Source of the DNA: Terriglobia bacterium
Lineage (GTDB): Bacteria; Acidobacteriota; Terriglobia; Bryobacterales; UBA6623
Assembly (NCBI GenBank): GCA_963824095.1
Contig: CAWGNS010000009.1
Location: forward strand, 348,272 to 412,271
Length of the DNA: 64,000 nt
Direction: 5' to 3'
The notes beneath the pieces were generated by a model that saw only the letters and a list, made by a program, of their open reading frames with translations, ran no database searches and had not been told where the DNA came from. Within the stretch, counting starts at the first letter, position 1, and each line of letters begins with the position of its first letter. Positions 6,967 through 60,541 of this stretch are shown one piece after another. The position numbers and the translations under genes were made by a program.

Positions 6967-6998
6967 ACAAACAGAGCCGCAGGCGTAAGCCCGCGGGC
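6967..6998 (+). repeat. repeat family D copy
   Basis: aacaaacagagccgcaggcgtaagcccgcgggc. Inverted partner at 7130-7166. Related copies at 33682, 38690, 49492, 51843, 53181, 53260. Confidence 0.75.
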
Positions 6999-7129
6999 CG
7001 AGTCGCCACAGAAGCCAGGGGCGAAGCGCCGCGAACTTGTTTCCGCCAACATTGCCAACGCGCCAGAAACCGGCATGGGGTTCTGCTGCGCCCCCCACAG
7101 CCGCAGGAGTTCGTAACCGCCCGGGGGCT

Positions 7130-7166
7130 TCCGCCCGCGGCTCTGTCTCGTTGTTTGTGGCGACGG
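7130..7166 (-). repeat. repeat family D copy (inverted relative to 6967)
   Basis: ccgggggcttccgcccgcggctctgtctcgttgtttg is the reverse complement of the caaacaacgagacagagccgcgggcggaagccc type. Confidence 0.75.
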
Positions 7167-7203
7167 TGCGGCAGGCCGGCGACGGTGCGGCAGGCCCCGG
7201 GCC

Positions 7204-21786: not shown

Positions 21787-22821
21787 ATGAACACTTCACA
21801 CCCTCCCACGCCGCTCGATCCCGAAGCGCAACGCGCGCTCGAGCTGATCGACGGCATGCGAGTCTCCAAAGCCACCTTCACCGCGCTGTCGCTGGGCGTC
21901 TTCGATACGTTGCACGAAGGTCCGGCCTCACTCGATGAGCTTGCAGAGCGCTTGCACTGCGCCGGCCACGCCCTGGAACGGTTGTTAGGCGCCTGCTGCG
22001 GCCTGGGACTGCTCGAACTGCGTGACGGCAACTATCACAACCGCCCGGTGGCGACGCGCTTCCTGCGGATTCACAGCCCCGAGACCCTCAGCGGATACAT
22101 GCTCTATGCCGACCGCATCAGTTTCCGCCTCTGGGGGCGCCTCGAAGACGCCGTCCGCGAGGGCACCCATCGTTGGGACCAGGAATTCGGCAGCGGCGCC
22201 GACATCTTTGCTCACTTCTTCGCCACCGATGAAGCCAAGCTCACCTTCCTGGCCGGCATGCACGGCCTCGGGCTGCTCAGCTCGCCCGCCATCGCCGCCG
22301 CCTTCGATTTGAGCCGCTTCCACCACCTGGCCGACATTGGCGGCGCCACCGGTCACCTCGTGATGGAGATCTGCCGCCGCTATCCCGAGATGACCGGCTG
22401 CGTCTTTGATCTGCCCGCCGTCACCCCGGTCGCGCGAACCTACATCGCCGAGGCCGGCCTGTCGGCGCGCATCACCACCGTCGACGGTGATTTCTTCAAC
22501 GATCCGCTGCCCCAAGCCGATCTTTGCAGCCTGGGCCGCATTCTCCACGACTGGACCGACGAAAAAGTCCGCTTCCTGCTCGACAAGATTTACAACAGCC
22601 TGCCGCCCGGCGGAGGCCTGCTGCTTTGTGAAAAGACGCTGAGCGAAACGCACGACGGCCCCGCCAGCGGCTACCTGCAATCGCTCAACATGCTGGTCTG
22701 CACCGAAGGCCGCGAGCGCACCGCCGCCGGCTACCGGCAACTCGTCGAACAAGCCGGCTTCACCCAATTCCAACTCTGCCAAACCGGCCGCCCCCTGGAC
22801 GCCATGCTGGCCATCAAATAG
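21787..22821 (+). CDS. class I SAM-dependent O-methyltransferase (Methyltransf_2/COMT-like)
   Basis: ORF 21565..22821(+), start ATG 21787. N-terminal dimerisation-like region. SAM motif LADIGGATGHL, DLP..., GRILHDW, GGGLLLCE. Confidence 0.8.
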   Translation: MNTSHPPTPLDPEAQRALELIDGMRVSKATFTALSLGVFDTLHEGPASLDELAERLHCAGHALERLLGACCGLGLLELRDGNYHNRPVATRFLRIHSPETLSGYMLYADRISFRLWGRLEDAVREGTHRWDQEFGSGADIFAHFFATDEAKLTFLAGMHGLGLLSSPAIAAAFDLSRFHHLADIGGATGHLVMEICRRYPEMTGCVFDLPAVTPVARTYIAEAGLSARITTVDGDFFNDPLPQADLCSLGRILHDWTDEKVRFLLDKIYNSLPPGGGLLLCEKTLSETHDGPASGYLQSLNMLVCTEGRERTAAGYRQLVEQAGFTQFQLCQTGRPLDAMLAIK

Positions 22822-33458: not shown

Positions 33459-33681
33459 CCGCCAGCCCGGGCATCGCGCTCCACCCAACCATACTTCCAG
33501 GAGAGCAGCGGTGAACACCAAGACCCAAGCCAAGCGGGGAGCAAGAGCAACGCTCTTGTTCCCCGCCGCGCCCGAACACCAACACCGCCAGCCGCGGGAT
33601 CAGCGCCGTCGGGCGACCGAAAGCGCCGCCGCCCGACCCAGAGCATTGTCGCGATCCGAAGCAAAGTCGCCCGACCCAAAG

Positions 33682-33716
33682 CAACAGAGCCGCGGGCGGG
33701 AGCCTGCGGGCTCTCG
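33682..33716 (+). repeat. repeat family D copy between substrate and sortase genes
   Basis: caacagagccgcgggcgggagcctgcgggctctcg (hairpin agagcc-gc.../...gggctct). Confidence 0.6.
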
Positions 33717-36582: not shown

Positions 36583-36614
36583 CCGATCAACCGATCGACG
36601 GATCAACCGGCTCA
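36583..36614 (+). repeat. repeat family G: 8-bp tandem array CCGATCAA-like x4
   Basis: ccgatcaa ccgatcga cggatcaa ccggctca. Lies 75-100 nt upstream of the + strand gene starting 36689/36713. Confidence 0.75.
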
Positions 36615-36688
36615 TTCTTGAGCCCCCCGCGCGTTGCGGGCCGCCGCGCGTTCGGCTTACACTCGGGCGCTGGGTTCGACGAACCAGG

Positions 36689-38476
36689 ATGTCGACGAAC
36701 GGGGGTAGGGCCATGGTCCAACGAATGTGCTTGCCTGCGCCGCGAGCCGCGGCCGCACGCGGCGTCGCGGCGATCGTCGCGGTTTTCTTTGCGGTATTGC
36801 TTGGCGCCCAGCCGGCTCCGCAGCCAGCCCCGCAACAGGCCGCGCGCGCGCAGCCCGAGCCTCCGGCGCCGCCCGCCGACGTATCGGTCGAGGCCGACAT
36901 CGACTACTCCAATGTCGGCGGCCGCATGCAGATGGACGTTGTCCGCCCGCTGCGCGGCAATGGCCCCTTCCCGGCCGTGGTCTGCATCCATGGCGGCGGC
37001 TTCCGCGCCGGCACGCGGCAGAGTTTTCTGCCCATCGCCTACTACCTGGCGCAGCACGGCTACGTCGCTGCCACGGTGACTTACCGCCTCAGCCCGATGA
37101 ATCAGTTTCCCGCGCCGGTCGAGGACGTCAAGGCCGCGGTGCGCTTTCTGCGCGCCAACGCCGCGCGCTTCGATGTCGACCCCGATCGTATCGGCACGGT
37201 CGGCGGCTCGGCGGGCGCCCATCTGGCGTTGATGCTCGGCGTCACGGGCGGCGTGGCCGAATTCGAGGGCTCGGGCCCGAATCTCGATCGCTCCAGCCGC
37301 GTCCAGGCCGTGGTGAGTCTCTATGGGCCGACCGATTTCACCAAGTCCTACGAGCCGGGCAAGAGCGTCGACGCAGCCGAGGTGCTGCCGATGTTTCTGG
37401 GCGGCGATCTCGAGCACAACCGACCGGCGCATCTGCGCGCCAGTCCGCTCTTTTGGGTGAGCCCCGACAGCGCGCCGACACTGGCCGTCCACGGCACCAA
37501 GGACAACTACGTCGCCTATGAGCAGGCCGTGTGGATAACCGAGCGTCTGGAGGCGGCCGGCGTCCCCACCAAACTCGAAACGATCGAAGGCGCCGGCCAC
37601 GGTTTTCACGGCGCTGATCTCGAACGGGCCAAGACGGCGATGCTGGCCTGGTTCGACGAATATCTGGCGCCGCGCTCCACCCAACGCTTGTTGCTGGTCG
37701 CCGATCACGGTCCGCGGGGTGAAATCGTCGCGCTCGACTGGCCCTCGGGCCGCGAGCGCTGGACGCTGCCCAATAACCACGGCCACGACGTACAGCTTCT
37801 ACCCAACGGCCACGTCCTCTACACCACCGGCGACTGGCGCCGCGTCGTCGAGGTCGATCCGCGCAAGATCGGCGGCGGAAACGAAGAGGTCTGGAGCTAT
37901 GGCCTCGCCGAGGGCCTCAAACATCCGGTCGCCGCCGAACGCCTCTCGAATGGCAACACCGTCATCGGCGACATGGAACTCGGCGAAGTCATCGAGGTGG
38001 ACGCGGCGGGCAAGATGGTCTGGGAATACAAGAACCCCGAGATGGCCGGACATCGCATGCGCAGCGTGCGGCGCACCGCCGAAGGCACCACCTTGATTGC
38101 GATCGAGCGGCTCAATAAGGTGATCGAGGTCGACCCCGGCGGCAAGATCATCTGGACCTTCCACGCCACCGGCGGCGACGAGCGCTTTCCCTACCAGGCG
38201 CATCGGCTCCCCAACGGCAACACGCTGATCGGCATGGCCGCGCCCGGCGAAGTCGTCGAAGTGGCCCCCGACGGCAAGATCGTGCGCTCGGTCGGCGGCC
38301 TCAACGACGCGCTGCGCATGGCCTGGTGCTCGGGGCTCGAGCCTCTCCCGGGAGGAGGCTTTATCGTTTCGGATTACACCGGCAGGCGCTTGCTCGAATT
38401 CGATCCAGACTGGAAAATCGTTCACGAACTGCGTATGGGCCCACGCACCATAGCCAGCGTGTCGCTGATCCCCTAG
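36689..38476 (+). CDS. alpha/beta hydrolase (esterase/lipase-like) fused to a C-terminal beta-propeller domain
   Basis: Start ATG 36689 or 36713. Signal-like segment. HGGGF oxyanion motif (CIHGGGFRAG), GGSAGA nucleophile elbow, HGTKD, GAGHGF. C-terminal ~260 aa with repeated ..G..VIEVD..GKIVW.. blades. Confidence 0.75.
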   Translation: MSTNGGRAMVQRMCLPAPRAAAARGVAAIVAVFFAVLLGAQPAPQPAPQQAARAQPEPPAPPADVSVEADIDYSNVGGRMQMDVVRPLRGNGPFPAVVCIHGGGFRAGTRQSFLPIAYYLAQHGYVAATVTYRLSPMNQFPAPVEDVKAAVRFLRANAARFDVDPDRIGTVGGSAGAHLALMLGVTGGVAEFEGSGPNLDRSSRVQAVVSLYGPTDFTKSYEPGKSVDAAEVLPMFLGGDLEHNRPAHLRASPLFWVSPDSAPTLAVHGTKDNYVAYEQAVWITERLEAAGVPTKLETIEGAGHGFHGADLERAKTAMLAWFDEYLAPRSTQRLLLVADHGPRGEIVALDWPSGRERWTLPNNHGHDVQLLPNGHVLYTTGDWRRVVEVDPRKIGGGNEEVWSYGLAEGLKHPVAAERLSNGNTVIGDMELGEVIEVDAAGKMVWEYKNPEMAGHRMRSVRRTAEGTTLIAIERLNKVIEVDPGGKIIWTFHATGGDERFPYQAHRLPNGNTLIGMAAPGEVVEVAPDGKIVRSVGGLNDALRMAWCSGLEPLPGGGFIVSDYTGRRLLEFDPDWKIVHELRMGPRTIASVSLIP

Positions 38477-38689: not shown

Positions 38690-38726
38690 GCCGGCGGGCT
38701 TCCGCCCGCGGTTCTGTTTTCGCGGG
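38690..38726 (-). repeat. repeat family D copy
   Basis: gccggcgggcttccgcccgcggttctgttttcgcggg. Confidence 0.65.
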
Positions 38727-40621: not shown

Positions 40622-40685
40622 CCCGAAGCGGGACGCGGCAAAGCGGGAGGTTCACGCCACGGGCAACCGGTCTGGCTTCGGGTGC
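40622..40685 (+). repeat. repeat family A partial copy 5
   Basis: cccgaagcgggacgcggcaaagcgggaggttcacgccacgggc...gcttcgggtg. Fills the gap between two convergent stops. Confidence 0.6.
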
Positions 40686-42769
40686 TACTCGCCCTTCAGC
40701 AGCCCTTTCGCCGTGGCCACCACCAAATCCGGCTCGAACCCAAACTTGGTTTGCAGCTCTTTGAGCGGGGCCGACGCTCCAAACGTGTGCATGCCGATGA
40801 CGCGGCCCGCGTCACCGACATAACGCTCCCACCCGAACGTCGAGGCCTGCTCGATCGCCACGCGGGCTTTCACCTTGCGCGGCAGCACGCTCTCGCGGTA
40901 GTCGGCCGGCTGGCGGTCGAAGATATCCCAGGAGGGCATCGACACCACGCGCGAACGCACGCCGCCGGCGGTCAGCTTTTCGTGGGCGTCGGCCGCCAGA
41001 CTCAGCTCGCTGCCCGTGGCGATCAAGATTACCTCGGGGTCGGCGCCCGGGGCGTCGGCCAGCACGTAGGCGCCGCGAGCCACGCCCGACGCCGGCGCGT
41101 ACTTATTGCGGTCGAGCGTTGGCAGCGCCTGCCGCGAAAGCACCAGCGCCGCCGGTTGATGCCGCAGTTGCAGGATGTAGCGGTAAGCCTCGACGACTTC
41201 GTTGGCGTCGCCGGGGCGCAGCAGGACCAGACCGGGGATGGCGCGCAGCGAAGCGAGCTGTTCCACCGGCTGGTGGGTGGGGCCGTCTTCGCCGTCGCCC
41301 ATCGCGTCGTGGGTGAATACGAAAATCGTGGGCAGCTCCATCAGCGCCGAAAGCCGGATCGCCGGCCGAGCATAGTCGCTGAAGATGAAAAACGTCGCGC
41401 CGTAGGCCCGCAGCTTCGACAGCGACATGCCGTTGACCACCGCCGCCATGGCGTGCTCGCGGATGCCGAAGTGCAGGTTCTTGCCGCCGGGGCTGTCGGG
41501 CTCGAAATCGCCGGCGCCGTCGTAGGTCAACAGCGTGCGGTTCGAGGGCCCCAGGTCGGCCGAGCCGCCCAGCAGCCATGGCACGTTCTGCGCCAGAACG
41601 TTGAGCGCCTTGCTCGAAGCGTCGCGGCCGGCCAGGCCCTTGGGGTCGGCGGGAAACGCCGGCAGGTTGCGGTCCCAGCCGTCGGGCAACTCGCGTCGCT
41701 GCATGCGGTCGATCTCGCCGGCCAGCTCGGGATATTTGCCGCGGTATTCAGCGAACTGCGCTGTCCAGTTTTCGCGGGCCCGGGCGCCGCGCTTGCCGAC
41801 GCCGTCGGCGAAATGCTCGTAGACGCCGTCGGGAACCAGGAACTGAGCATCCTCGGGCCAGCCGTAGCTGCGTTTGGTGAGGCGGACCTCCTCGTCGCCC
41901 AGCGGCTCGCCGTGGGCCGCCGCCGTATCCTGCTTGTTCGGAGAGCCGTAGCCGATGTGGCTGTCGAGAATGATCAGCGTGGGGCGAGCCGTGGTTTCGC
42001 GGAAAACTTTCAGCGCGTGGCCGATGCGGTCGATATCGTTGGCGTCGCCGACGCGCAGCACGTTCCAGCCGTAGCCGAGAAAGCGCGCGGCGACGTCTTC
42101 GGTGAAGGTGATGCTCGTGTTGCCTTCAATGGTGATGTGGTTGTTGTCGTAGATCCAGCAGAGGCTGTCGAGGCGCAGGTGGCCGGCCAGCGAGGCGGCT
42201 TCGGACGCAACGCCCTCCATCAGGCAGCCGTCGCCGCACACGGCGTAGACGTTGTAGTCGAATACGGCGAACTCGGCCCGGTTGTAGCGGTGCGCCAGCC
42301 ATTTTTGGGCGAGGGCCATGCCGACACTGGTAGCGACACCCTGGCCGAGCGGCCCGGTAGTCGTCTCGACGCCCGAAACCCAGTGGTACTCGGGGTGGCC
42401 GGGCGCCTTGCTGTCGAGCTGCCGGAAGTGGCGAATATCGTCGAGCGTCACCGAGGGCTGCCCCAGCCGCTCGTAATCGGCGTTGACGGCCTGCGTGCGC
42501 GTCAGGTGGAGCACCGACCACAGCAGCATCGAGGCGTGGCCGTTCGACAGCACGAAGCGGTCGCGATTGGGCCAGATGGGGTCCCGCGGATCGAACCGCA
42601 TCTCGCGGTTCCACAGCGTGTAGACAAGCGGCGCAAGCGCCATTGGCGTGCCGGGGTGCCCCGACTTCGCCTTCTGCACGGCATCGATCGACAGCGTCCG
42701 GATCGTATTGATACAGAGCTGGTCGAGGTCGACGGTGGTCGCGGTTTCCGCAAGCTCTCCGACGCTCAT
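40685..42769 (-). CDS. tkt: transketolase
   Basis: ORF 40685..42898(-), start ATG 42769 (MSVGELAE). SGHPGTPMALAP, RDRFVLSNGHASMLLW, GPLGQG, GDGCLMEG, FTHDAMGDGEDGPTHQPVE. Confidence 0.95.
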   Translation of the reverse strand: MSVGELAETATTVDLDQLCINTIRTLSIDAVQKAKSGHPGTPMALAPLVYTLWNREMRFDPRDPIWPNRDRFVLSNGHASMLLWSVLHLTRTQAVNADYERLGQPSVTLDDIRHFRQLDSKAPGHPEYHWVSGVETTTGPLGQGVATSVGMALAQKWLAHRYNRAEFAVFDYNVYAVCGDGCLMEGVASEAASLAGHLRLDSLCWIYDNNHITIEGNTSITFTEDVAARFLGYGWNVLRVGDANDIDRIGHALKVFRETTARPTLIILDSHIGYGSPNKQDTAAAHGEPLGDEEVRLTKRSYGWPEDAQFLVPDGVYEHFADGVGKRGARARENWTAQFAEYRGKYPELAGEIDRMQRRELPDGWDRNLPAFPADPKGLAGRDASSKALNVLAQNVPWLLGGSADLGPSNRTLLTYDGAGDFEPDSPGGKNLHFGIREHAMAAVVNGMSLSKLRAYGATFFIFSDYARPAIRLSALMELPTIFVFTHDAMGDGEDGPTHQPVEQLASLRAIPGLVLLRPGDANEVVEAYRYILQLRHQPAALVLSRQALPTLDRNKYAPASGVARGAYVLADAPGADPEVILIATGSELSLAADAHEKLTAGGVRSRVVSMPSWDIFDRQPADYRESVLPRKVKARVAIEQASTFGWERYVGDAGRVIGMHTFGASAPLKELQTKFGFEPDLVVATAKGLLKGE

Positions 42770-42783
42770 GGTTTTCCTTTCGA

Positions 42784-44202
42784 TCAAGCCGCGTTGGCGG
42801 CGCCGCTGGAGGCGGCTTTGCCGCCGTTGTTGGTCACCACCGGGTTGTGCCAGCCCTCGGGTGGCGTGACTCTGCCTTCGACTTCGCTCGGGCCCCACGA
42901 GCCTGGATCGTACTCATAGGTGGGAACCTTGGCGTGCAACACCGGGTCGACGATGCGCCAGGCCTCTTCGACGTAATCTTCGCGGGCGAACAGGGTGGCG
43001 TCGCCCACCATGGCGTCGCCCAGCAGCCGCTCGTAGGCGCCCACCGATTCCGGGGTCGGGTGGCGGCTGACCTGCATCTCCACCGGCTCGCCGGCGATTT
43101 CTTTTCCCGGGACCAGCACCATCAGGTTCATTGCGATGGTGACGTCGGGGTTGATGCGCAGCCGCAAGTAGTTGGGTTTCGACGCCGAGCCGGCATAGAC
43201 GTCGGGCGGCCGTCGCAGCCGCACCAGCACCTCGGTGCAGGTCACCGGCAAGCACTTCCCAGCCCGAATATAGAACGGCACGCCTTCCCAACGCCAGGAC
43301 TTCACGTCCAGGCGCAGCGCCGCGAAGGTCTCGGTGGAAGAGTCCGGCTTGACGCCCTTTTCATCACGATAGCCGCGAAACTGCCCGCGCACGACGTTCT
43401 GAAGATCGAGCGGCGGGATGGCCTTGAGTACCTTGACCTTTTCGTCGCGAATGGATTCGCTATCGGTACGCACCGGTGCTTCCATGGCGAGGTTCACCAG
43501 CACCTGCAGCAGGTGATTCTGCACCACGTCGCGGATCGCGCCGGTGTGATCGTAAAACGCGCCGCGCCCCTGGACCCCGAATTCCTCCGCCATCGTAATC
43601 TGCACGCTTTCGACGTAGTTGCGGTTCCAGAACGGCTCCAGGAACGAATTCGCGAACCGGAAATAGAGCAGATTATTGACTGGCAGCTTTCCCAGGTAAT
43701 GATCGATGCGGCACACCGAGCGGTCGTCGAAGGTGTCGAGCAAAATGCGATTCAGCTCTTGGGCCGAGGCGAGGTCGTTGCCGAACGGCTTTTCGAGAAC
43801 GACGCGGGCGTCGTTGGCGCAGCCCGAATCGCCCAGTTGCGTGATCACCTTTTCGAACAACACCGGCGGAATCGCCAGGTAGTGAACGGGCCGGCGAGCC
43901 GAGCCCAACTGTTTGCGCAGCTCTTGAAAGGTGGCCGGGTCGTTGTAGTCGCCGTCGACATAGCGCAGCAGCGAGCAGAGTTTCTCGAAGGCCGGGCGAT
44001 CGAGCTCGCTGTGCTTTTCGAGGCTATCGCGCGCCCGTTCGCGGAGCTGGTCGAGATTCCATCCGGCCTTGGCGACTCCGATCACGGGCACGTCGAGATG
44101 ACCGCGCTGGATCATCCCCTGCAGCGCCGGAAAGATCTTTTTGTAGGCCAGATCGCCGGTGGAGCCGAAGAAGACCAGAGCGTCGGAATGGAACGTGCTC
44201 AT
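42784..44202 (-). CDS. zwf: glucose-6-phosphate 1-dehydrogenase
   Basis: ORF 42784..44469(-), start ATG 44202 ([27 protein letters not shown]), AAGGAAGG upstream. [13 protein letters not shown]. Confidence 0.95.
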
Positions 44203-44221
44203 GAGAATACCTTCCTTGTGC

Positions 44222-45241
44222 TTATTTTTTTGCGGATTTTTCCAGGTGCCCGCCGAACTGGTAGCGCATCGCCGACAGCAGCTTGTCCTGGTAGTCGGAT
44301 TCGCCGCGCGAGCTGAAGCGCTGGAACAGCGCCGCCGAAAGCACCGGCACCGGCACGGCCTCGTCGATCGCCGCTTTGATGGTCCAGCGGCCTTCGCCCG
44401 AGTCGGAGACCTGGCCGGCGAAGTCGCCCAGCTCCGGATCCTTGACCAGCGCGGCGGCGGTGAGGTCAAGCAGCCAGGAGGCGATCACGCTGCCGCGGCG
44501 CCAGACTTCGGCGATGTCGCGAAGGTTCAGCTCGTATTCGTAGTGGGCGGGGTCGCGTAGCGGGCTGGTCTCGGCGTCGGCGGCGCTTTGTACCTTGCCG
44601 ATATTGGCGTCGCGCAACACGCCGAAGCCCTCGGCGTAGGCCGCCATCACGCCGTACTCGATGCCGTTGTGGACCATCTTGACGAAATGGCCTGCGCCGT
44701 TGGGTCCGCAGTGGAGATAGCCGTGCTCGGCCGTGCCGCCCAGCTTCTCGCGCCCCGGCGTTCGCGCAATGTCTCCGGCGCCGGGAGCCAGCGTCTCAAA
44801 AATCGGGTTGAGGTGCTCGACCACACCGGGCTCGCCGCCGATCATCATGCAATAGCCCCGTTCCAGGCCCCACACCCCGCCGCTGGTGCCTACGTCGACG
44901 TAGTGAATCTGTTTCTCCCGCAACTGCTTGGCGCGGCGGATGTCGTCGACGTAGTAGGAATTGCCACCGTCGATCACGATGTCGCCGGCTTCCAGATGCG
45001 GCGCCAGCGAGGCGATGGTCTTATCCACCACGGCCGCCGGCACCATCAGCCAGATGGCGCGCGGGGTTTCGAGCTTGCCCATGAACTCCTTTGCGTCGGA
45101 CGCTCCGGTGGCGCCGTGGGCTACCGAGTTTTGAACGGCGTCGGGCGACAGGTCGAAGACGGTGCAGGAGTGCCCGCCTTGCAGCAGCCGCCGCACCATG
45201 TTCGAGCCCATGCGTCCCAGGCCTACCATTCCGATTTGCAT
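44222..45241 (-). CDS. gnd: 6-phosphogluconate dehydrogenase, decarboxylating (short Gnd/YqeC type)
   Basis: [62 protein letters not shown]. Confidence 0.9.
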
Positions 45242-45347
45242 TGTGCGTTCTCCTTCCAGCGACGAGGCGGCGTTTCCTCGTCGTTTAGCGATGTTGTCGG
45301 GTGAGCGCCCGGCGTTGGGATAGCCGGCGGCCGCCGGGGGCCGGGCT

Positions 45348-46991
45348 TCAAACGCTCGCCTTGATCGCGCGGTAGCGGCGGATCAGCGCGTTCGTCGAGC
45401 TGTCGTGGTCGAGCGCCGGTTCTTCGCCGCTTTCCAATTCGGGGATGATGCGCTGCGCCAGCGCCTTGCCGAGCTCGACGCCCCACTGGTCGAACGCATC
45501 GATGTTCCAGATCGCCGCCTGCGTAAACACGCTGTGCTCGTAGAGCGCCACCAGCTTGCCGAGGGCTTCGGGCGTCAGCCGCTCGATCAGGATCGTGTTC
45601 GACGGGCGGTTGCCCTCGAAGACGCGATGCGGCACCAGCCGGTCGGGCGTGCCCTCCGCCTTCACTTCGGCGGCCGTTTTGCCGAACGCCAGCGCCTCGG
45701 CCTGCGCCAACACGTTGGCCAGCAGCATGTCGTGATGGCGGCCCAGCGGATTGAGCGAGCGGCCGAAGGCGATGAAGTCGCAGGGAATCAGCTTCGTCCC
45801 CTGGTGGATGAGCTGATAGAACGAGTGCTGCCCGTTGGTGCCCGGCTCGCCCCAGTAGATCGGCCCGGTCTGGTAGTCGATGGCGTTTCCTTCGAGAGTG
45901 ACGTGCTTGCCGTTGCTCTCCATCGTCAACTGCTGCAGATAGGCCGGGAAGCGCTTCAGGTATTGTTCATAGGGCAGCACGGCGATCGTCTGGGAACCGA
46001 AGAAGTTGTTGTACCAGAGGGCCAGCAGCCCCAGCAGCACGGGTAGATTGCGCTCGAACGGGGCGGTGCGGAAATGCTCGTCCATCTGGTGGAAGCCGGC
46101 GAGCATGGCGTTGAAATTTTGCGGACCGATGGCGAGCATGGTCGACAGGCCGATCGCTGAATCCATCGAATAGCGCCCACCCACCCAGTCCCAGAACTCG
46201 AACATGTTGGCGGTGTCGATGCCAAACTCCTGGACCTTGGCGGCGTTGGTCGAGACGGCCACGAAATGCCGTGCGACGGCCTTCTCATCGCCACCGAAAC
46301 GGTCCAGGCTCCAGGCGCGGGCGGTGCGCGCGTTGGTCATCGTCTCGAGCGTGGTGAAGGTTTTCGACGAGACGACGAACAGCGTTTCCTCGGGATCGAG
46401 GTCGTGGACCGCCTCGGCGAAGTCGGTGGCGTCGACGTTCGAGACGAAGCGAAACGTCATCGCCCGCTCGGCGTAGTGTTTCAGCGCCTCGTAGGCCATC
46501 ACCGGGCCCAGGTCCGAGCCGCCGATGCCGATGTTGACCACGTTGCGGATACGCTTTCCGGTGTGACCCTTCCACTCGCCGCCGCGCACGCGTTCGCAAA
46601 ACTTGGCCATCTTGCCGAGCACGGCGTGGACCTGCGGCACGACGTCGACGCCGTCCACGGTGATCGACTGTTCTTTGGGCGCGCGCAAGGCGACGTGCAG
46701 CACCGCGCGGTTCTCGGTGACGTTGATCTTGTCGCCGCGAAACATGGCGTCGATCCGCTGGCGCAGGCCCGACTCGGCGGCCAGTTGCAGCAGCAGCTCG
46801 ATTGTTTCGGCGGTAGCGCGGTTCTTCGAGTAGTCGAGGTAGAGGCCCAGGGCCTCGACGGTCATGCGCTCGCCGCGGCCGGGCTCGTCGGCGAACAGTT
46901 TTCGCAGGTGCAGCCCCTCGATCTGTTGGAAGTGGGCGTCGAGCGCGCTCCAGGCGGCGCTTTGGGCAGCGGTGGTGGCGGTTGGGGTCAT
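45348..46991 (-). CDS. pgi: glucose-6-phosphate isomerase
   Basis: ORF 45348..47252(-), start ATG 46991 ([17 protein letters not shown]). [51 protein letters not shown]. Confidence 0.95.
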
Positions 46992-51443: not shown

Positions 51444-51842
51444 GGCGAAGCTCCGATCGGATCAGAGCCGGCCGCCGGACTTGGGCTACCGCCGGGTGAG
51501 TCATCCGTTGCCGTTTCCCGCCCCGGCAAGTCCGCCCGGAGCCGCTGGCGGCTGGAGATACGAGGGGGAATGGCATCTGTATCGGGGTCGGGAGGATGGC
51601 CTGTGGCGCCAGCGAACGGCTGTTGAGATAGCGACTCTTTAGATAGTAATGCCAAACGCGGGGAAAGTGTTGGCGGCGCAAGTCGCGGCCTGGGCGTCTT
51701 GGCACGTGCCGTGAACCGCCAAGAATCGCCACGAATCGGGACAAACCGCCGCGAATCGCCACTCAGAGCCGCGGACTTGAGCCCGCGCTGCGTGGCACGG
51801 CGCAGCGCCATCGCCCGACTCCCAGCACTGTAGCCCGGCCAG

Positions 51843-51879
51843 GCCGCACAGCGCGGGCTCACGCCCGCGGCTCCGAGTG
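51843..51879 (+). repeat. repeat family D, 37-nt copy identical to 53260-53296
   Basis: gccgcacagcgcgggctcacgcccgcggctccgagtg (contains hairpin cgcgggc-tcac-gcccgcg). Confidence 0.9.
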
Positions 51880-51924
51880 GGAATAAAGGCGATTCAGCCC
51901 GCCGCCCGTTTAACCCGCCGGCCT

Positions 51925-53139
51925 TCAACCCGCAAGCATCCACAACCATACCGCCGCAATCCCCAGTGTCGCCAAGGTTACCGGCACCCCCACCCGCGCA
52001 TGGTCGCGCCAGGAAACTTTTACGCCCAGCCGCCCGGCCTGGTCCGCCACGATGATGTTGGCGATGCTGCCGACCAGGAACAGGTTCCCCGCCAGCGTGC
52101 TCGCCAGCGCCAGCACGGCGCCGGCCATCGGGTGCGTCGCCGCCGGCAGCAGCAGCATCACCGCCGGCACGTTCGACACCAGGTTCGAGAGCACCACCGC
52201 GGCGGCGAACAGCCAGCCGGGCCGCGACAGATCTACGCCCGCTCCGCGCACGCCGTCGAAAACCTGCGTCAGCGCTCCCGACGCAGTCAACGCGTGATTG
52301 ACGACAAACAGCCCGATGAACAGCACCAGCAGTTGCCAATCCACCTCGCCGAGCATGTCGCGCGAAGCCATGCGGCGGCTCATCAGCAGCAGCCCGGCCG
52401 CCGACAGCGCCGCCACTTCGCGCGGCACGTCGGTCCACAGAAAAACCGCCACCAGCAGCGCCAGCACGGCAAAACCCTTGGCGGTCTGCCAGCGGTCGAA
52501 CGGTGCCGCGACGGCCTGAATGCCCCGCGGCGGCGCCTGCCAGCGTCCCCGGAACTGCCGGCAGATGATCGCCCATACGGCCGCCAGGCTCAGCACGGCG
52601 GGAACGCCCGCGTCCCACAAATAGCCCCCAAACGACAGGTTGAGCCGTTGGCCGATCAACATGTTTTGGGGGTTGCCGATCAACGTCGCCGCCGACCCGG
52701 CGTTGGAAGCGCAGGCCAGCGCCAGCAGGAACGGCAGGGGATGGAGGCCGCGCCGGTCGCAGCCCTCAATCAGCACGGGGGCCATCGCCAGGCACACTAC
52801 ATCGTTGGCCAGCAACGCCGACAGGGCGCCGGCGATCACGATCAACGCCGCCAGCAACGCGGCCGGCCCCACCTCGGCGGCGGCGATCCTGCGGGTGAGC
52901 CGCGTATAAAAACCGCCCAGCCGGAACTGCGCCGACACGACCATCAGTCCGAACAACAGCCCGATGGTAGGCACATCGACCGCCGCCCAGGCCTGCCCGG
53001 GAGTCAACCGCCCGGCGGCCAGCAGCCCGATCGCCCCCAGCAAAGCCACGCCCGCCCGCTCGAGCGCCAGCCCGGGAATGCCGCCCAAAAGCATCCCGAG
53101 GTAAACGAACGCAAACACGAGAGCGACGACCGTGTCCAT
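51925..53139 (-). CDS. ArsB/NhaD-superfamily anion permease
   Basis: ORF 51925..53367(-), start ATG 53139 (MDTVVALVFAFVYLGMLLG). The upstream part of the ORF covers repeats. Motifs SNAGSAATLIGNPQNMLIG and 10+ TM helices. Confidence 0.8.
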   Translation of the reverse strand: MDTVVALVFAFVYLGMLLGGIPGLALERAGVALLGAIGLLAAGRLTPGQAWAAVDVPTIGLLFGLMVVSAQFRLGGFYTRLTRRIAAAEVGPAALLAALIVIAGALSALLANDVVCLAMAPVLIEGCDRRGLHPLPFLLALACASNAGSAATLIGNPQNMLIGQRLNLSFGGYLWDAGVPAVLSLAAVWAIICRQFRGRWQAPPRGIQAVAAPFDRWQTAKGFAVLALLVAVFLWTDVPREVAALSAAGLLLMSRRMASRDMLGEVDWQLLVLFIGLFVVNHALTASGALTQVFDGVRGAGVDLSRPGWLFAAAVVLSNLVSNVPAVMLLLPAATHPMAGAVLALASTLAGNLFLVGSIANIIVADQAGRLGVKVSWRDHARVGVPVTLATLGIAAVWLWMLAG

Positions 53140-53259
53140 GTTTGAGGATAAAAGAGCACAGAGGCGCGAAGAACCGCCGCTCACAGCCGCGGGCGTAAGC
53201 CCGCGCCATGCGCATGACCGGGCCGCAGTGCCAAAACTCGAGGCCAAGCGCCGGGCCGA

Positions 53260-53296
53260 GCCGCACAGCGCGGGCTCACGCCCGCGGCTCCGAGTG
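53260..53296 (+). repeat. repeat family D, 37-nt copy identical to 51843-51879
   Basis: gccgcacagcgcgggctcacgcccgcggctccgagtg. A further related unit at 53181-53207 (tcacagccgcgggcgtaagcccgcgcc). Confidence 0.9.
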
Positions 53297-53335: not shown

Positions 53336-53389
53336 CCGATCAACCGATCAACCGATGAACCGATCAACGGCTCCGCCGATCAACGATCC
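53336..53389 (+). repeat. repeat family G: 8-bp tandem array CCGATCAA x6-7
   Basis: ccgatcaa ccgatcaa ccgatgaa ccgatcaa cggctccg ccgatcaa cgatcc. Ends 43 nt upstream of ATG 53432. tgtatact follows immediately. Confidence 0.85.
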
Positions 53390-53431
53390 TGTATACTAAC
53401 GTGTTCGCGAAAGCGGAAAGGAGTTTCCCCC

Positions 53432-54556
53432 ATGAACGTGCCGTTCTATGGCCACGTCAAGCAGTATCACAACATTAAGTCGGAGATCGACGCCAATATT
53501 CAGGAGGTGCTCGAGAGCGGCCAACACGTCATGGGGCCGATGCTCAAGCGCTTCGAGCGCGAATTCGCCGACTATCACGGATTGAAATACGCGGTGGGCG
53601 TCGGCAACGGCACCGACGCGCTGTGGCTGACGTTCATGGCCCTGGGCATCGGCCCGGGCGACGAGTGCATCACGACCACCAATACATTTTTCGCGACGGC
53701 CGAGGCGATCTGGACCACCAACGCCACCGCGGTGTTCGTCGATTCCGATCCGAAAACCAACTGCCTCGACCCGGCCCGCATCGAGGCCGCCATCACGCCC
53801 AAGACCAAGGCGCTGGTGCCGGTGCACCTCTACGGGCAGTGCGCTGACATGAAAGCGATCCGCGCCATTGCCGACAAGCACAAGCTGCTGGTGATCGAGG
53901 ACAACGCGCAGGGCGTCGGCTCGGCCGGCAACGGCTTCCGCGTCGGCGAGCTGAGCGACGCGGTCTGCACCAGCTTCATCATTCAGAAGAACCTGGGGAC
54001 GTTCGGCGACGGCGGCGCCGTGGTGACCAACAACCCCGAGATCGACCGCATCATCCGCAAGCTGCGCAACCACGGGTCCGACAAACGCTCGGTGCACAGC
54101 ATGGGTTTCAACTCACGGCTCGACGACATCCACGCCGGCGTGCTCAGCGCCAAGCTCAAGCACATCGATTCGTGGAATGACCAGCGCCGCAAATGGTCGG
54201 CGCACTACACCTCGTGCCTCAAAGAGGCCGCCAACTTCACGCTGCCCTACGAAGTTCCCGGTGGCCGTCATGTGTTTCACCTCTACGTCATCGAGACGAA
54301 AAAGCCCGAGCACCGCGACCCGTTGCTGAAGTTCCTCAACGACAGCGGCATCGACGCCAAGTGCCACTACCCGATCGCCATTCACCAGCAGGAAGGCTAC
54401 CCCTGGGGCAAGCAAGCCCGCATCGTGGGCCCGATTCCCAACTCCGAGCGCAACGCAGCCTGCTGCGTCTCGCTGCCGATGTTCCCCGAACTGACGCAGC
54501 AAGAGGCTGACTTCGTCATCGAGAAAACGCTGGAGTGGGATCGCAGCGCCAGCTAG
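53432..54556 (+). CDS. DegT/DnrJ/EryC1/StrS family sugar aminotransferase
   Basis: ORF 53132..54556(+), start ATG 53432 with GGAAAGGAG upstream. GNGTDAL, VHLYGQ, EDNAQ, PLP-Lys context SFIIQKNLGTFGDGGAV. Confidence 0.9.
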   Translation: MNVPFYGHVKQYHNIKSEIDANIQEVLESGQHVMGPMLKRFEREFADYHGLKYAVGVGNGTDALWLTFMALGIGPGDECITTTNTFFATAEAIWTTNATAVFVDSDPKTNCLDPARIEAAITPKTKALVPVHLYGQCADMKAIRAIADKHKLLVIEDNAQGVGSAGNGFRVGELSDAVCTSFIIQKNLGTFGDGGAVVTNNPEIDRIIRKLRNHGSDKRSVHSMGFNSRLDDIHAGVLSAKLKHIDSWNDQRRKWSAHYTSCLKEAANFTLPYEVPGGRHVFHLYVIETKKPEHRDPLLKFLNDSGIDAKCHYPIAIHQQEGYPWGKQARIVGPIPNSERNAACCVSLPMFPELTQQEADFVIEKTLEWDRSAS

Positions 54557-57693: not shown

Positions 57694-57756
57694 GGGAGTC
57701 GATTCTATTGCGCGGACGGAATGTTCGAATGGGACGGAGCAGCCCTTTGCCCGGTC

Positions 57757-57870
57757 CAGGTTGCACAGCCTAGATTGCGCAGCCCGGGTTGCACAGCTTA
57801 CGTTGCACGGACCGGATTGCACAGACAGGGATGTCTGCGCCACTGCAACAGACAGGATTGTCTATTCTGC
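57757..57870. repeat. 14-bp phased tandem array (about 8 units) of family B half-sites
   Basis: TTGCACAG-type cores start at 57761, 57775, 57789, 57803, 57817 (exact 14-nt steps). The array then continues as palindromic atgtctgc / ctgcaacagac / attgtctat. Confidence 0.8.
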
Positions 57871-57888: not shown

Positions 57889-58665
57889 CTAGATGTGGCC
57901 GAACACCGGCTCGGCTTCGCGCCGCGTGGGCGTGGCCGACAGCATCGCCGTGCGCACGGCCTGGATGATGGCGTGCTTTTCGCGGTGGCGCAGCGAGCGG
58001 CGGTTCACCAGCAGCCGGGCCGTCGAGCTGGGCAGTACCTTTTCGATGATCTTGAGGCCGTTGGCGCGCAGCGTGCGGCCGGTCTCGGTGTTGTCGACGA
58101 TCGCGTCGCCGTCTTCGGGCGGCTTCGACTCGGTCGCGCCGAAGGAATGAAACACCGCCACCGGCGACGAGCTACGCCGCTCGACATGCAGCCGCGAGTA
58201 GGGGCTGTAGAGCGACGGCTCGAGATCGGTGTGCTGCCGGACCAGCGCTTCGGTGAGGTTCAGATACTCGGTCCAGATGCGCAGCGGGTGCGTGCCCGTC
58301 GAATTGACGAATTTCTCGAACAGATCGGCGGCGCTGTTGACGTCTTCCCAGGCGGCCGGCACGGCCAGCACGATATCGACGCGGCCGAAGCCCAGGTCGA
58401 GCAGGTCTTCGACGTTCGAAGCGCACTCGCTTTCGCGGTACCAGTCGAGCCCGGAAATGCCCATGTCATAAAAGCCGGCGGCGATCATGTAGGGGATTTC
58501 CTGCGGCCGCAGCACCTTCACGGTGACGTCTTCGAGGTCGAGAGTCGGGCGATAGCTGCGGCTGCCGTCCCCGTAGCCTTGCGGACGCAGACCGGCGCGC
58601 TCGAGAAACGGCAACGTGGATTTTTCGAGGCTGCCCTTGGGTATGGCGAAACGAACGAGGCTCAT
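57889..58665 (-). CDS. hisG: ATP phosphoribosyltransferase (HisG, no long C-terminal regulatory domain evident)
   Basis: ORF 57889..58956(-), start ATG 58665 (MSLVRFAIPKGSLEK). RPQEIPYMIAAGFYDMGISGLDW, GATESKPPEDGDAIVDNTETGRTLRANGL. 258 aa. Confidence 0.8.
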   Translation of the reverse strand: MSLVRFAIPKGSLEKSTLPFLERAGLRPQGYGDGSRSYRPTLDLEDVTVKVLRPQEIPYMIAAGFYDMGISGLDWYRESECASNVEDLLDLGFGRVDIVLAVPAAWEDVNSAADLFEKFVNSTGTHPLRIWTEYLNLTEALVRQHTDLEPSLYSPYSRLHVERRSSSPVAVFHSFGATESKPPEDGDAIVDNTETGRTLRANGLKIIEKVLPSSTARLLVNRRSLRHREKHAIIQAVRTAMLSATPTRREAEPVFGHI

Positions 58666-58692
58666 GGCAGGTTGATTCTCAATGTAACACTG

Positions 58693-58724
58693 TTGATCGG
58701 TTGACCGGTTAATCGGTTGATCGG
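58693..58724 (-). repeat. repeat family G: 8-bp tandem array (TTGATCGG x4 on + strand = CCGATCAA on - strand)
   Basis: ttgatcgg ttgaccgg ttaatcgg ttgatcgg. Begins 28 nt upstream of the minus-strand hisG start, in the gene orientation. Confidence 0.85.
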
Positions 58725-58911
58725 TTCGCGCTTGACCCGGCAGGCTGCTTTGGCCCACCAGCCACCCGGCCCTTTCAGGCAACCGCCCCTCCAGCGACTC
58801 GGAGGCGTGGACGTGAGTCCGCGCTGCGCGGCATCGACCGGGCTCCATTGCTCGTCCGCCGGCCACACTCCCCCGGCCCTCCGAAGCAAAAATCCACTCG
58901 GGTGGCCTACC

Positions 58912-58988
58912 GAAGCCACAAAAACCCGCCCGTGGCGCGAACCTCCAGGTTGCCACGCCGCGATTCGTCGCGACATAGGGCCCACGCT
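58912..58988 (-). repeat. repeat family A copy 4
   Basis: gaagccacaaaaacccgcccgtggcgcgaacctccaggttgccacgccgcgattcgtcgcgacatagggcccacgc. Confidence 0.8.
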
Positions 58989-59071
58989 ACCGATGCCCGC
59001 GGGAGGGCTGCCAACACCGGACCTGAATGGAGTTTTTGCTCAGACTGGCAAGCCCGCCGCTCCGAGCTGCC

Positions 59072-60541
59072 TTACCCGAGCTTTGCCGCCAGCGCGTCCG
59101 CCGTCAACGGCACGTCCTCGCCGGCCGCAGTCTTGCCGTTGCCCAACTTCACCACCGCTACCGGCTGCTCGCCACGCACGCTGCCGACCCACTCGGCTTT
59201 GTGCTCGCGGCAATCGTCGGGCCCGGGCTTTTCCAGATCTCCTTGCACGACGCCGATGCGGAAACCCTGGCGCCGCAACTGCTCGGCCACGGCGACCGCC
59301 TCGGCCAGCAGTTCCTCCGAGGCGGCGACCAACACCAGTTGATAATCGCGAGGGGCCGTCCAGGCGCCGGCGGCGATGAATCCATCGACGATGTCGTCGA
59401 AGCGGAACCCGCAGCCGGTTGAAGGCAGCGGCGGACCTCCGAACTCCTCGACCAGGCTGTCGTAGCGGCCACCGCCGCAGTACTTCACGCCGCCCGCGCC
59501 GTTGGCGGCGGAAATCTCGAACACCGTGCTGGTGTAAAACGTGAAGCCGCGCGCGATCCCCAGCACCACCTCGAAATCGCCCACCGCGGGATACATCGCC
59601 ACGTGCCGCGCCACCGCCAGCAACTCTTCGAGACCGGCCGTGGCCGGGGTTCCCGCCAGCAGGCTGGCCGCTTCCTGGTGCACCTTGTCGAGCGAGCCGC
59701 GCAGCCGCGAGGCGCGCAGCAGCAGCTCGGCGGTCGCCTCCGACACCAGTTCCTGCACGCTCCAGACGCGGCGGAAGGTCGCCTCGGCTTCGAGCGGCAT
59801 GCGGACGATCAGCTCGGTCTCGGAAAGCTGCGGGCAGTCGGCGATCGCGTAAGGGCCCGAAAAGTTGGCTTCGGCCTGCATCGCGGCCAGGTCGATGCGG
59901 TCCATCTTGAGATCCTCAAGCAGCACCGGATCGGGCCGTTCGGCGATCAGCGCGCACTTCTCGTCGATCGAGATGAGGTGGTCGAGGTGGCCGATGACCA
60001 CGGCTTGGTCTTCGGCGTCGAGCTCGGCGCCCAGCAGTTCGCGGAAGATCCGGCTGGTGCCGATTTTGAGCGAAAAGCCGGGCAGGCCGACGGCCCGCAG
60101 AAAGCCGCACGCCGCGGCAATGACTTCGGCGTCGGCGGCCGGCCCCGCCGCGCCCAGGCATTCGATGCCGGCCTGGGTGAACTCGCGATAGCGGCCCGAG
60201 TGCGGCCGGCAGTAGCGGAAGCAGGAGCCGGCGTAGTGGAAGCGGTAGGGCGGCTCCGTGCCCTCCAGCGCTCCCGAGGCCAGCAGCCGGCACACCGGCG
60301 CGGTCATCTCGGGGCGCAGCGCGAACTCCTCGTGGTCGCTGTGGAAGGTCAGCATCGACCCTTTGACTTCGGGTCCGGAACGGGCCAGAAACAGCTCGAC
60401 GGCCTCGTAGACCGGCGTCTGGATGGGGCGGTAGCCGTAGGATTCGGCGACCTGGGCGAAGGTGGCGGCGACGTGGTTGCGCGCGGCGGCCTGAGCCGGC
60501 AGAAAATCGCGCGTCGCTCGCGGAGACTGATATTTTGCCAT
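59072..60541 (-). CDS. histidyl-tRNA synthetase family protein (HisS or HisZ-like regulator; unresolved)
   Basis: 489 aa. PRATRDFLP, class II motif 2-like FRYCRPHSGRYREFTQAGIECLG, ARGFTFYTSTVFEI, motif 3-like CGGGRYDSLVEEFGG..GCGFRFDDIV, and a C-terminal anticodon-binding-like domain. Confidence 0.8.
   Translation of the reverse strand: MAKYQSPRATRDFLPAQAAARNHVAATFAQVAESYGYRPIQTPVYEAVELFLARSGPEVKGSMLTFHSDHEEFALRPEMTAPVCRLLASGALEGTEPPYRFHYAGSCFRYCRPHSGRYREFTQAGIECLGAAGPAADAEVIAAACGFLRAVGLPGFSLKIGTSRIFRELLGAELDAEDQAVVIGHLDHLISIDEKCALIAERPDPVLLEDLKMDRIDLAAMQAEANFSGPYAIADCPQLSETELIVRMPLEAEATFRRVWSVQELVSEATAELLLRASRLRGSLDKVHQEAASLLAGTPATAGLEELLAVARHVAMYPAVGDFEVVLGIARGFTFYTSTVFEISAANGAGGVKYCGGGRYDSLVEEFGGPPLPSTGCGFRFDDIVDGFIAAGAWTAPRDYQLVLVAASEELLAEAVAVAEQLRRQGFRIGVVQGDLEKPGPDDCREHKAEWVGSVRGEQPVAVVKLGNGKTAAGEDVPLTADALAAKLG

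Follow-up and report, generated by a model that had tools for sequence, protein, structure and literature searches.

The closest described relatives of the repeats discussed here are two families of heptamer arrays, GGGAATC in Xanthomonas campestris and X. axonopodis, with about 185 loci per genome, and the STRR-type GGGGA(T/C)T in Nostoc PCC 7120 (Rehm et al. 2015; PMC4692102). Between 89 and 93% of these arrays are intergenic, and their G-rich strand lies antisense within about 50 nt upstream of open reading frames (ORFs) or sense within about 50 nt past the stop codon, at times overlapping it, with the ORF nearer on the 5' side of the G-rich strand whatever the orientation of the ORF itself (28 vs 160 nt). 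Some of the arrays form inverted pairs, their neighbouring genes are unrelated, the loci are stable, no link to mobile elements was seen and no function was found (PMC4692102). Here we describe a family of octamer arrays of unit CCGATCAA, three of which lie upstream of a DegT aminotransferase gene, of hisG and of a hydrolase gene in a 64,000-nt stretch of contig CAWGNS010000009.1 from a Terriglobia bacterium (the whole of this stretch is referred to as the window). Like the Xanthomonas and Nostoc heptamers, the octamer family is predominantly intergenic, follows the same polarity with TTGATCGG as its G-richer strand, has unrelated neighbours and includes inverted pairs. Unlike them, it is found in Acidobacteriota, Planctomycetota, Verrucomicrobiota and other phyla, and its unit TTGATCGG contains no GGG run, so that it cannot form the G-quadruplexes on which the published interpretation was based (PMC4692102). 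The octamer strand that hugs stop codons has TGA in all three frames, unlike GGGAATC, and only three octamer copies are visible in the 64-kb window, against the per-genome counts of the heptamer families. The family is thus best read as a non-G-quadruplex octamer addition to the known kind of dispersed, ORF-facing simple-sequence repeats (SSRs), whose units are 6-9 nt long. The reading that we favour, at what we would call even chances, is that the arrays are copies of a lineage-specific dispersed SSR family and are mostly tolerated passengers, with incidental promoter effects at most.

All three arrays were found at the positions and in the orientations given by an earlier note on this DNA, each facing the DegT, hisG or hydrolase gene (Table 1). 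Array 1 amounts to 6.9 copies according to Tandem Repeats Finder (TRF), with four exact units and a partial CGATCC unit at its end, and is separated from the DegT ATG (53432) by 42 nt; the gap between array 2 and the hisG ATG (58665) is 27 nt, and array 3 lies 74 nt from the first ATG (36689) and 98 nt from the database-called start (36713) of the hydrolase gene. The arrays are not chance assemblies, as the note had also held: the exact 8-mer CCGATCAA occurs nine times in the window against 2.25 expected, a number reached in none of 100 shuffles, and the two-unit 16-mer with up to three mismatches occurs ten times against 0.56 expected, again reached by no shuffle. A three-unit scan of the window returned arrays 1-3 only, all three intergenic, and the exact octamers at 52652 and 52676 were rejected as arrays, being Leu-Ile-Gly codons of the minus-strand CitMHS transporter gene. 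The density of three arrays per 64 kb compares with one marginal array among 359,797 nt of related DNA from soil, fetched without regard to array presence (Poisson P = 8e-4); further arrays occur about once per 16-18 kb in sister contigs, and at least seven were found in a related metagenome-assembled genome (MAG). No inverted complementary partner of the window arrays was found, decayed copies included. The RNA folding of the window arrays is no different from that of shuffled sequences and they are not conspicuously unstructured, with the GAUC palindromes pairing. There was no Rfam 15 match at the gathering threshold anywhere in the window, and a consensus scan of array 1 gave neither a canonical sigma-70 promoter nor a terminator.

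A scan of public genomes with three units of the octamer, taking one genome per species, yielded 84 loci spread over many phyla, among them Planctomycetota, Verrucomicrobiota, Acidobacteriota, Bacteroidota, Pseudomonadota, Actinomycetota and others, and several of these genomes carry two to seven loci. Gene positions at the 84 loci were obtained using our own self-trained codon log-odds caller, which reproduced all the Pfam-verified window genes together with their starts and for which 15 further genes were checked against Pfam; it replaced simple GC-frame callers, which mis-called shadow frames. Among the non-redundant public arrays 78 of 86 are intergenic, and the nearest gene lies at a median distance of 21.5 nt from the 3' side of the array and of 135 nt from the 5' side (p=2e-10). 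The 3' side is the one nearer to a gene in 48 of 61 arrays (p=8e-6), a majority that holds in 36 of 48 genomes (p=7e-4). Sense arrays outnumber antisense arrays by 20 to 5 within 100 nt of a start codon (p=0.004) and by 11 to 0 within 30 nt (p=0.001), while within 15 nt of a stop codon the strand of the gene reads TTGATCGG in 28 cases and CCGATCAA in 3 (p=5e-6). The polarity rule is that the ...CAA-3' end of the array abuts the nearest ORF, the array being sense before starts and antisense just after stops, and all the window arrays conform to its start-side half. The orientation lock proposed in the earlier note is therefore real as a bias at start codons, but it does not hold 'always', given the antisense arrays at stops and the in-frame arrays within coding sequence.

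The stop-side arrays often supply the gene's stop codon themselves, through their first TGA. They were considered as possible products of truncation or of spurious ORF calls, and this was rejected on finding that 10 out of 10 tested genes are real and full-length. Directional growth of arrays towards the ORF was likewise discarded, for there is no overall purity gradient (p=0.10) and the gradient on the start side runs the wrong way. The unit, whose G-richer strand reads TTGATCGG, also occurs as 7- and 9-nt variants. CCGATCAA has one G in eight and is free of ATG, GTG and TTG and of stops in any frame, and its complement has TTG as well as TGA in every frame, which is consistent with the observation that arrays within coding sequence are in frame and in the CCGATCAA sense only. 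For example, two Verrucomicrobiota loci (L014:3119-3150 and L069:841-864) encode a (T)DQPINRST linker between a signal peptide and a sulfatase-type domain, and in-frame coding arrays are also present in L028, L079 and L005. As to over-representation of the octamer, viral-contig controls gave one motif match against 2, 2 and 0 for permuted octamers; this is uninformative, and no excess across bacteria is claimed. Since an octamer incapable of forming quadruplexes obeys the same positional rules in several phyla, gene-facing polarity is seen to be a general property of this repeat class, and this points to the G-poor/G-rich strand asymmetry or the complementarity of paired arms as the variable that matters.

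The window DNA is from a Bryobacterales-like acidobacterium, its HisG being 83% identical to proteins of Bryobacterales/Acidobacteria and 90-93% identical to soil-metagenome proteins. The DegT array is common only to one lineage at 93% identity (L187); it is missing in another at 89% (L188) and absent from all 80 orthologs at 75-87% identity (L107-L186). The L187 array is homologous to array 1, with which it shares both the left flank AGCCGCTT and the right junction AACGATCC-TGTATACTAACG, but it is shorter by one whole unit (an 8-nt indel), and it comprises 7-, 8- and 9-nt units. The empty site of L188 reads GCAGCTTT joined directly to TGTATACT without any proto-repeat, and the filled sites read GCCGCTT.., then the array, then TGTATACT; comparison of the two points to a clean insertion of about 50 nt at approximately -17 to -70 of the promoter. 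Most of the 80 DegT orthologs have a TAnnnT hexamer (TATACT, TATAAT, TACAAT and others) at 30-38 nt upstream of the ATG, with AAGGAG after it, and in a six-ortholog alignment TGTATACT is invariant, as are the Shine-Dalgarno (SD) sequence and the ATG. Nothing is conserved upstream of the -10 box in the aligned orthologs, and no -35 element is conserved among them. The suggestion of the earlier note that TGTATACT after array 1 is a -10 element is borne out by this conservation, and the position of the array upstream of the conserved box makes it promoter-upstream DNA, not the 5'-untranslated region (5'-UTR) element that the note had offered as an alternative. With its box and SD at a fixed distance from the ATG in about 80 orthologs, the DegT gene also lets a promoter of uncultured Acidobacteriota be seen with unusual clarity.

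The hisG array has a similarly narrow distribution, being present only in lineages at 92-93% HisG identity (L085-L090), where it is degenerate and has the same orientation as in the window, and missing at 90% (L101-L104) and at 82-83% (L091-L095); the hisG leaders of the 82-83% lineages are array-free and have a purine-rich SD. The array-free L101 has a TGCTACAGT box ending 15 nt before the hisG ATG, a distance equal to that of TGTTACATT in the window, which is a putative extended -10 box of hisG. The array of L085 and L089 sits between a conserved TGCTAGACT box and the ATG, with no SD, and sister lineages accordingly have the array on opposite sides of the putative -10 box. Taken together, the ortholog comparisons show that the arrays are young, having arisen by recent, clean insertion of ready-made multi-unit tracts in one narrow Bryobacterales lineage, and that they have since drifted through whole-unit indels and point changes. 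Two lines of argument for constraint on the arrays were examined and set aside. That L089 and L105 are 100% identical across the array follows from a breakpoint of recombination within hisG, and the identity of the window and L187 arrays, when set against four-fold sites (0.72), is uninterpretable because repeats inflate identity and can be homogenised. L105 and L106 are mosaic, equal to the L089 type up to position 6788 in hisG and L085-like downstream, which indicates that sister lineages of these soil metagenomes have recently recombined by homology. Both the window and L101 have a TGnTAnnnT box at hisG that stops a mere 15 nt short of the ATG, and neither has an SD there, which suggests a very short leader in both. 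The spacer between the hisZ-like gene and hisG (58666-59071) is 406 nt long in the window as compared with 56-166 nt in relatives (L085, L091, L093, L101).

The proximity of arrays to -10-type hexamers raises the question of whether they are iterated DNA operators or promoter elements, on which a repeat-binding protein, for instance of the ribbon-helix-helix type, would sit at the -10 box and repress or activate the gene. We consider this quite unlikely. The tandem 8-bp units do end 3-8 nt upstream of such hexamers at DegT and, putatively, at hisG, the DegT junction is kept in L187, and an array followed by TAnnnT is likewise seen at L022 and L016. Operators of this form are known, and the heptad operators of the omega protein of plasmid pSM19035 consist of contiguous 7-bp units that overlap a promoter. 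The metbox operators of MetJ are closer still in unit length, being contiguous 8-bp units that overlap the promoter as the arrays do at DegT and putatively at hisG; a MetJ dimer occupies a single 8-bp box, and two or more boxes must lie side by side (PMC3228920). Unlike the targets of MetJ and omega, the genes next to the arrays are functionally unrelated and form no coherent regulon, and the arrays are not conserved among orthologs, being missing outside the closest lineages (the 80 DegT orthologs; hisG orthologs at or below 90% identity). Their position relative to the hisG box differs among sister lineages, phasing is lost with units of 7, 8 and 9 nt, similar arrays occur at stop codons and within the coding sequence of other genomes, and there is no candidate regulator among the window genes. 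The earlier note had argued for a cis-regulatory role. A conserved cis-regulatory site is unlikely for arrays that are confined to the closest sister lineages, lie on either side of the putative hisG box and adjoin unrelated genes; the interpretation of the note as a whole is partly supported.

The same note had described a GATC every 8 bp and raised a methylation-sensitive switch as well as variation of unit number by slippage. The periodicity is approximate, and the three arrays contain only 5, 2 and 3 GATC sites, respectively. GATC is not the core of the unit, since positions 1, 7 and 8 are kept at 0.88-0.91 and G-A-T-C at 0.75-0.80, and only 75 of 235 imperfect units (32%) retain GATC. Unit number does vary between the window and L187, which differ by one unit, but it does not differ among strains that are about 99.4% identical, represented by contigs of different samples with 15-19 SNPs over 3-3.7 kb; only lineages about 28% diverged at four-fold sites show whole-unit changes. 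A GATC-methylation-sensitive or slippage-driven phase-variation switch acting on the downstream genes would agree with the presence of GATC in most units, with the promoter-proximal location of the arrays and with whole-unit indels between lineages, and it has a counterpart in the (ATCTTTC)n repeat of Haemophilus influenzae hmw, whose tandem units, of 7-8 nt, likewise lie just ahead of a gene (PMC12721329). Unlike hmw, the window arrays are short, interrupted by imperfect units so that at most two consecutive units are perfect, invariant in close strains, and placed beside housekeeping or metabolic genes instead of surface or contingency genes, and the DegT array is upstream of the -10 box and not in the 5'-UTR. 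A search for a methyltransferase, including the GATC methyltransferase whose presence the note had wished to see checked, found none encoded in the 64-kb window, which is weak evidence and says nothing on the whole genome. Such a switch is highly improbable, and we regard the arrays as neither a GATC-methylation switch nor a hypermutable contingency locus.

Some arrays are arranged in inverted pairs. Of 89 arrays, 11 have an inverted partner within 700 nt, and the order (TTGATCGG)n-spacer-(CCGATCAA)n, with the CAA ends outward, was found in 13 of 14 partner observations. Pairs of this kind flank inserts of approximately 100-190 nt within operons of the Bryobacterales MAG LejiaD_62_10, at fliO-fliP-[pair]-fliQ, murF-mraY-[pair]-murD and GT2-[pair]-GT1. 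The fliP-fliQ, mraY-murD and GT2-GT1 genes are normally contiguous. The location of the arrays inside these operons implies that they are probably transcribed there, and in folding predictions the arms pair over more than 32 bp, in a stem that reaches from 1 nt past the UGA of the upstream gene almost to the AUG of the downstream one (-118.5 kcal/mol, z=-5.2). No homology was found among the spacers that paired arms enclose, even inside one genome.

These pairs are part of the case for an RNA-level polar module, in which a C-rich, G-poor (CCGAUCAA)n strand is read into the ORF and, together with a (UUGAUCGG)n arm at the previous stop, zips the insert into a stem that would keep the stop and start adjacent for translational coupling or make an RNase III site; lone arrays would then be unstructured, start-codon-free leaders, ribosome landing pads, or else Rho-loading pads for transcripts that run into the gene. 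We think this unlikely, with a chance that is still appreciable. The number of partnered arrays and their nearly uniform order, the inserts of about 190 nt at the fliP-fliQ, mraY-murD and GT2-GT1 junctions and the predicted stem joining UGA to AUG all agree with it, as do the L085/L089 hisG array, lying between a -10-like box and the ATG without an SD, and the many arrays of other phyla that are 3-30 nt from an ATG. It also accounts for the hugging of stops as well as of starts, and a precedent exists in hmw, where an SSR-containing 5'-UTR hairpin is processed by RNase III and the repeat RNA forms one arm of this long substrate hairpin (PMC12721329), comparable to the paired arrays of LejiaD_62_10. 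Against it stand the window arrays themselves, which have no complementary partner, not even a decayed one, and as lone arrays fold like shuffled sequences instead of being conspicuously unstructured. The DegT array precedes the conserved -10 box and its upstream neighbour is a divergent gene, so that no operon transcript is expected across it, and the module is not required, since most orthologs lack an array. A bolder form of the claim, to which we give a smaller chance, is that octamer arrays in general are strand-polar RNA modules, the stem pairs coupling mraY-murD and fliP-fliQ or making RNase III sites and the lone arrays being half-sites, whose C-rich, G-poor strand would police the transcripts that run into the ORF, serving for instance as a pad for Rho loading or ribosome standby. 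Were this correct, strand-polar RNA modules would provide the first mechanistic rationale for the ORF-facing polarity that is common to the Xanthomonas and Nostoc repeats, and would show that this polarity is independent of G-quadruplexes.

The outward polarity in 13 of 14 partner observations and the extra DNA that pairs bracket between normally contiguous operon genes could also be read as arm-cargo-arm insertions, with octamer arrays as the terminal inverted repeats of a foldback element or of something akin to a MITE (miniature inverted-repeat transposable element); the window arrays would then be the surviving single ends of such mobile insertions. The clean insertion at DegT, with no proto-repeat at the empty site, fits this. 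The junction location, bounding inverted repeats and RNA folding of the paired arrays also recall REP/REPIN sequences and the Correia repeat-enclosed elements of Neisseria, which are inverted-repeat-bounded inserts at gene junctions, can fold as RNA and can be bound or cleaved by RNase III (PMC2649163). Unlike Correia elements and REPINs, which have a conserved core and fixed termini, the octamer arms are tandem, the DNA enclosed by them is non-homologous, even in one genome, and the window arrays are unpaired; the lack of homology among spacers rules out a MITE or foldback element with a conserved core. There are, moreover, no conserved flanks and no target duplications, there is no transposase in the window, and the published heptamer families are not tied to mobile elements (PMC4692102). 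We regard the window arrays as improbable remnants of mobile insertions.

Returning to the arrays as tolerated passengers, ready-made multi-unit tracts have inserted in untranslated DNA at the edges of unrelated genes and have then drifted by whole-unit indels and point changes, and we envisage that they persist only at those sites and in those orientations that have the 'silent' strand, CCGATCAA, read towards or into the gene. At DegT, the tract takes the place of the -35/upstream DNA next to the conserved -10 box and is not part of the transcript of that promoter. The orientation lock would in this way reflect tolerance and not a dedicated regulatory site, and the effect on the three window genes would perhaps be a modest, incidental change at most, their promoters not being reliant on a conserved -35 element. 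Several observations weigh against this account. Among the stop-side arrays, 28 of 43 begin no more than 15 nt from the natural stop codon of a full-length gene, where about 3 would be expected if positions were uniform, and such crowding at ORF edges is more than a tolerance filter could bring about by itself; the close hugging of both stop and start codons is not accounted for by passengers. That one unit recurs at many loci and in many phyla calls for a copying mechanism or for selection. The arrays of LejiaD_62_10, which form complementary pairs inside operons, have an organised look, and two of the three window arrays, like those at L022 and L016, are within 3-8 nt of a -10-like box, where they could have a promoter role. 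For the window itself, the arrays plausibly mark recently remodelled promoter regions of the DegT, hisG and hydrolase genes, and in annotation they are not to be labelled as operators, riboswitch-like leaders or methylation switches.

Table 1. Positions of the octamer arrays and associated features (window coordinates, except for the loci of LejiaD_62_10, which carry a contig handle)
Feature	Position	Strand	Remarks
Array 1	53336-53389	+	CCGATCAA CCGATCAA CCGATGAA CCGATCAA CGGCTCCG CCGATCAA CGATCC
Array 2	58693-58724	-	CCGATCAA CCGATTAA CCGGTCAA CCGATCAA as read on the minus strand; 4 units
Array 3	36583-36614	+	CCGATCAA CCGATCGA CGGATCAA CCGGCTCA; ~3.5 units
DegT/DnrJ/EryC1 aminotransferase gene	53432-54556	+	Pfam PF01041, E=3.6e-115; downstream of array 1
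DegT -10 element TGTATACT	53390-53397	+	TATACT at 53392-53397; directly 3' of array 1
DegT Shine-Dalgarno GGAAAGGAG	53415-53423	+	AAGGAG kept in orthologs
hisG, short-form ATP phosphoribosyltransferase	57889-58665	-	Pfam PF01634; downstream of array 2
HisS/HisZ-like gene	59072-60541	-	Pfam PF13393; upstream of hisG
Putative extended -10 box of hisG, TGTTACATT	58681-58689	-	3 nt past array 2; ends 15 nt before ATG
BD-FAE / alpha-beta hydrolase gene	36713-38476	+	Pfam PF20434, E=3.8e-53; downstream of array 3
Candidate -10 hexamer TACACT	36658-36663	+	Between array 3 and hydrolase gene; weak assignment
Inverted pair, LejiaD_62_10	L035:2247-2494
Inverted pair, LejiaD_62_10	L043:3742-4010
Inverted pair, LejiaD_62_10	L048:2119-2296
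Inverted pair, LejiaD_62_10	L051:1498-1726
Lone sense array, LejiaD_62_10	L035:1811-1834		7 nt ahead of gene following fliQ
REP-like hairpin	6974-6994	-
REP-like hairpin	7123-7143	+
REP-like hairpin	33687-33707	-
REP-like hairpin	38694-38714	+
REP-like hairpin	51766-51786	-
REP-like hairpin	51853-51873	+
REP-like hairpin	53184-53204	-
REP-like hairpin	53270-53290	+

The DegT, hisG and hydrolase genes have unrelated functions, housekeeping or metabolic according to their Pfam domains. The DegT start codon was recovered independently by the codon-model gene caller, and DegT and the hydrolase are each 100% identical to a database protein from one 1.25-Mb contig, that of the hydrolase being 587 aa long (P0241). 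No transposase was found among the window genes. Nor was a methyltransferase domain or repeat-binding regulator, which is uninformative for the rest of the genome.

Two further occurrences of the octamer in public genomes may be mentioned. In the low-GC Erysipelotrichaceae MAG H07637 (L009, L011 and two sites in L024), a 30-nt left flank, ggtgtccaaaatcatttgcacaataatcaa, is conserved, with related sequence in L032 and L083, and the arrays are followed by other 7-8-nt repeats (tagaaat, caattcaa); the array may be part of a larger repeated unit in this genome. The Mycobacterium szulgai contigs L074 and L084 both have the same perfect array of nine units, with identical AT-rich flanks that look unlike mycobacterial DNA, and this segment could be duplicated or foreign.

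The intergenic regions of the source genome are packed with different repeat families. One of these is a GC-rich hairpin family, GCGGGCTCACGCCCGCGGCTC, which resembles repetitive extragenic palindromic (REP) sequences and REPINs and has a GCGGGC/GCCCGC stem with a TCAC or GTAA loop; there are at least eight copies in the window against 0.01 expected. The hairpins are mostly arranged as inverted pairs 86-150 nt apart, with a diverged copy at about 58790-58830 and relatives upstream of hisG in L089 and L105. A physical link between them and the octamer arrays was considered and rejected, as the L187 and L085 arrays have no adjacent hairpin. Other tandem repeats lie beside the hairpins at 7159-7196, 33630-33684, 51713-51762 and 51893-51933 (periods 19, 18, 10 and 16). 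The tandem arrays at 57756-57824 (period 14/28), between the hisG stop and the adh_short start, and at 21939-21962 (period 11) share the core TTGCACAGC and may represent another dispersed short-repeat family. Finally, the minus strand at 40685-46991 carries an ordinary pentose-phosphate cluster, in which genes for transketolase, glucose-6-phosphate dehydrogenase, 6-phosphogluconate dehydrogenase and phosphoglucose isomerase are contiguous.

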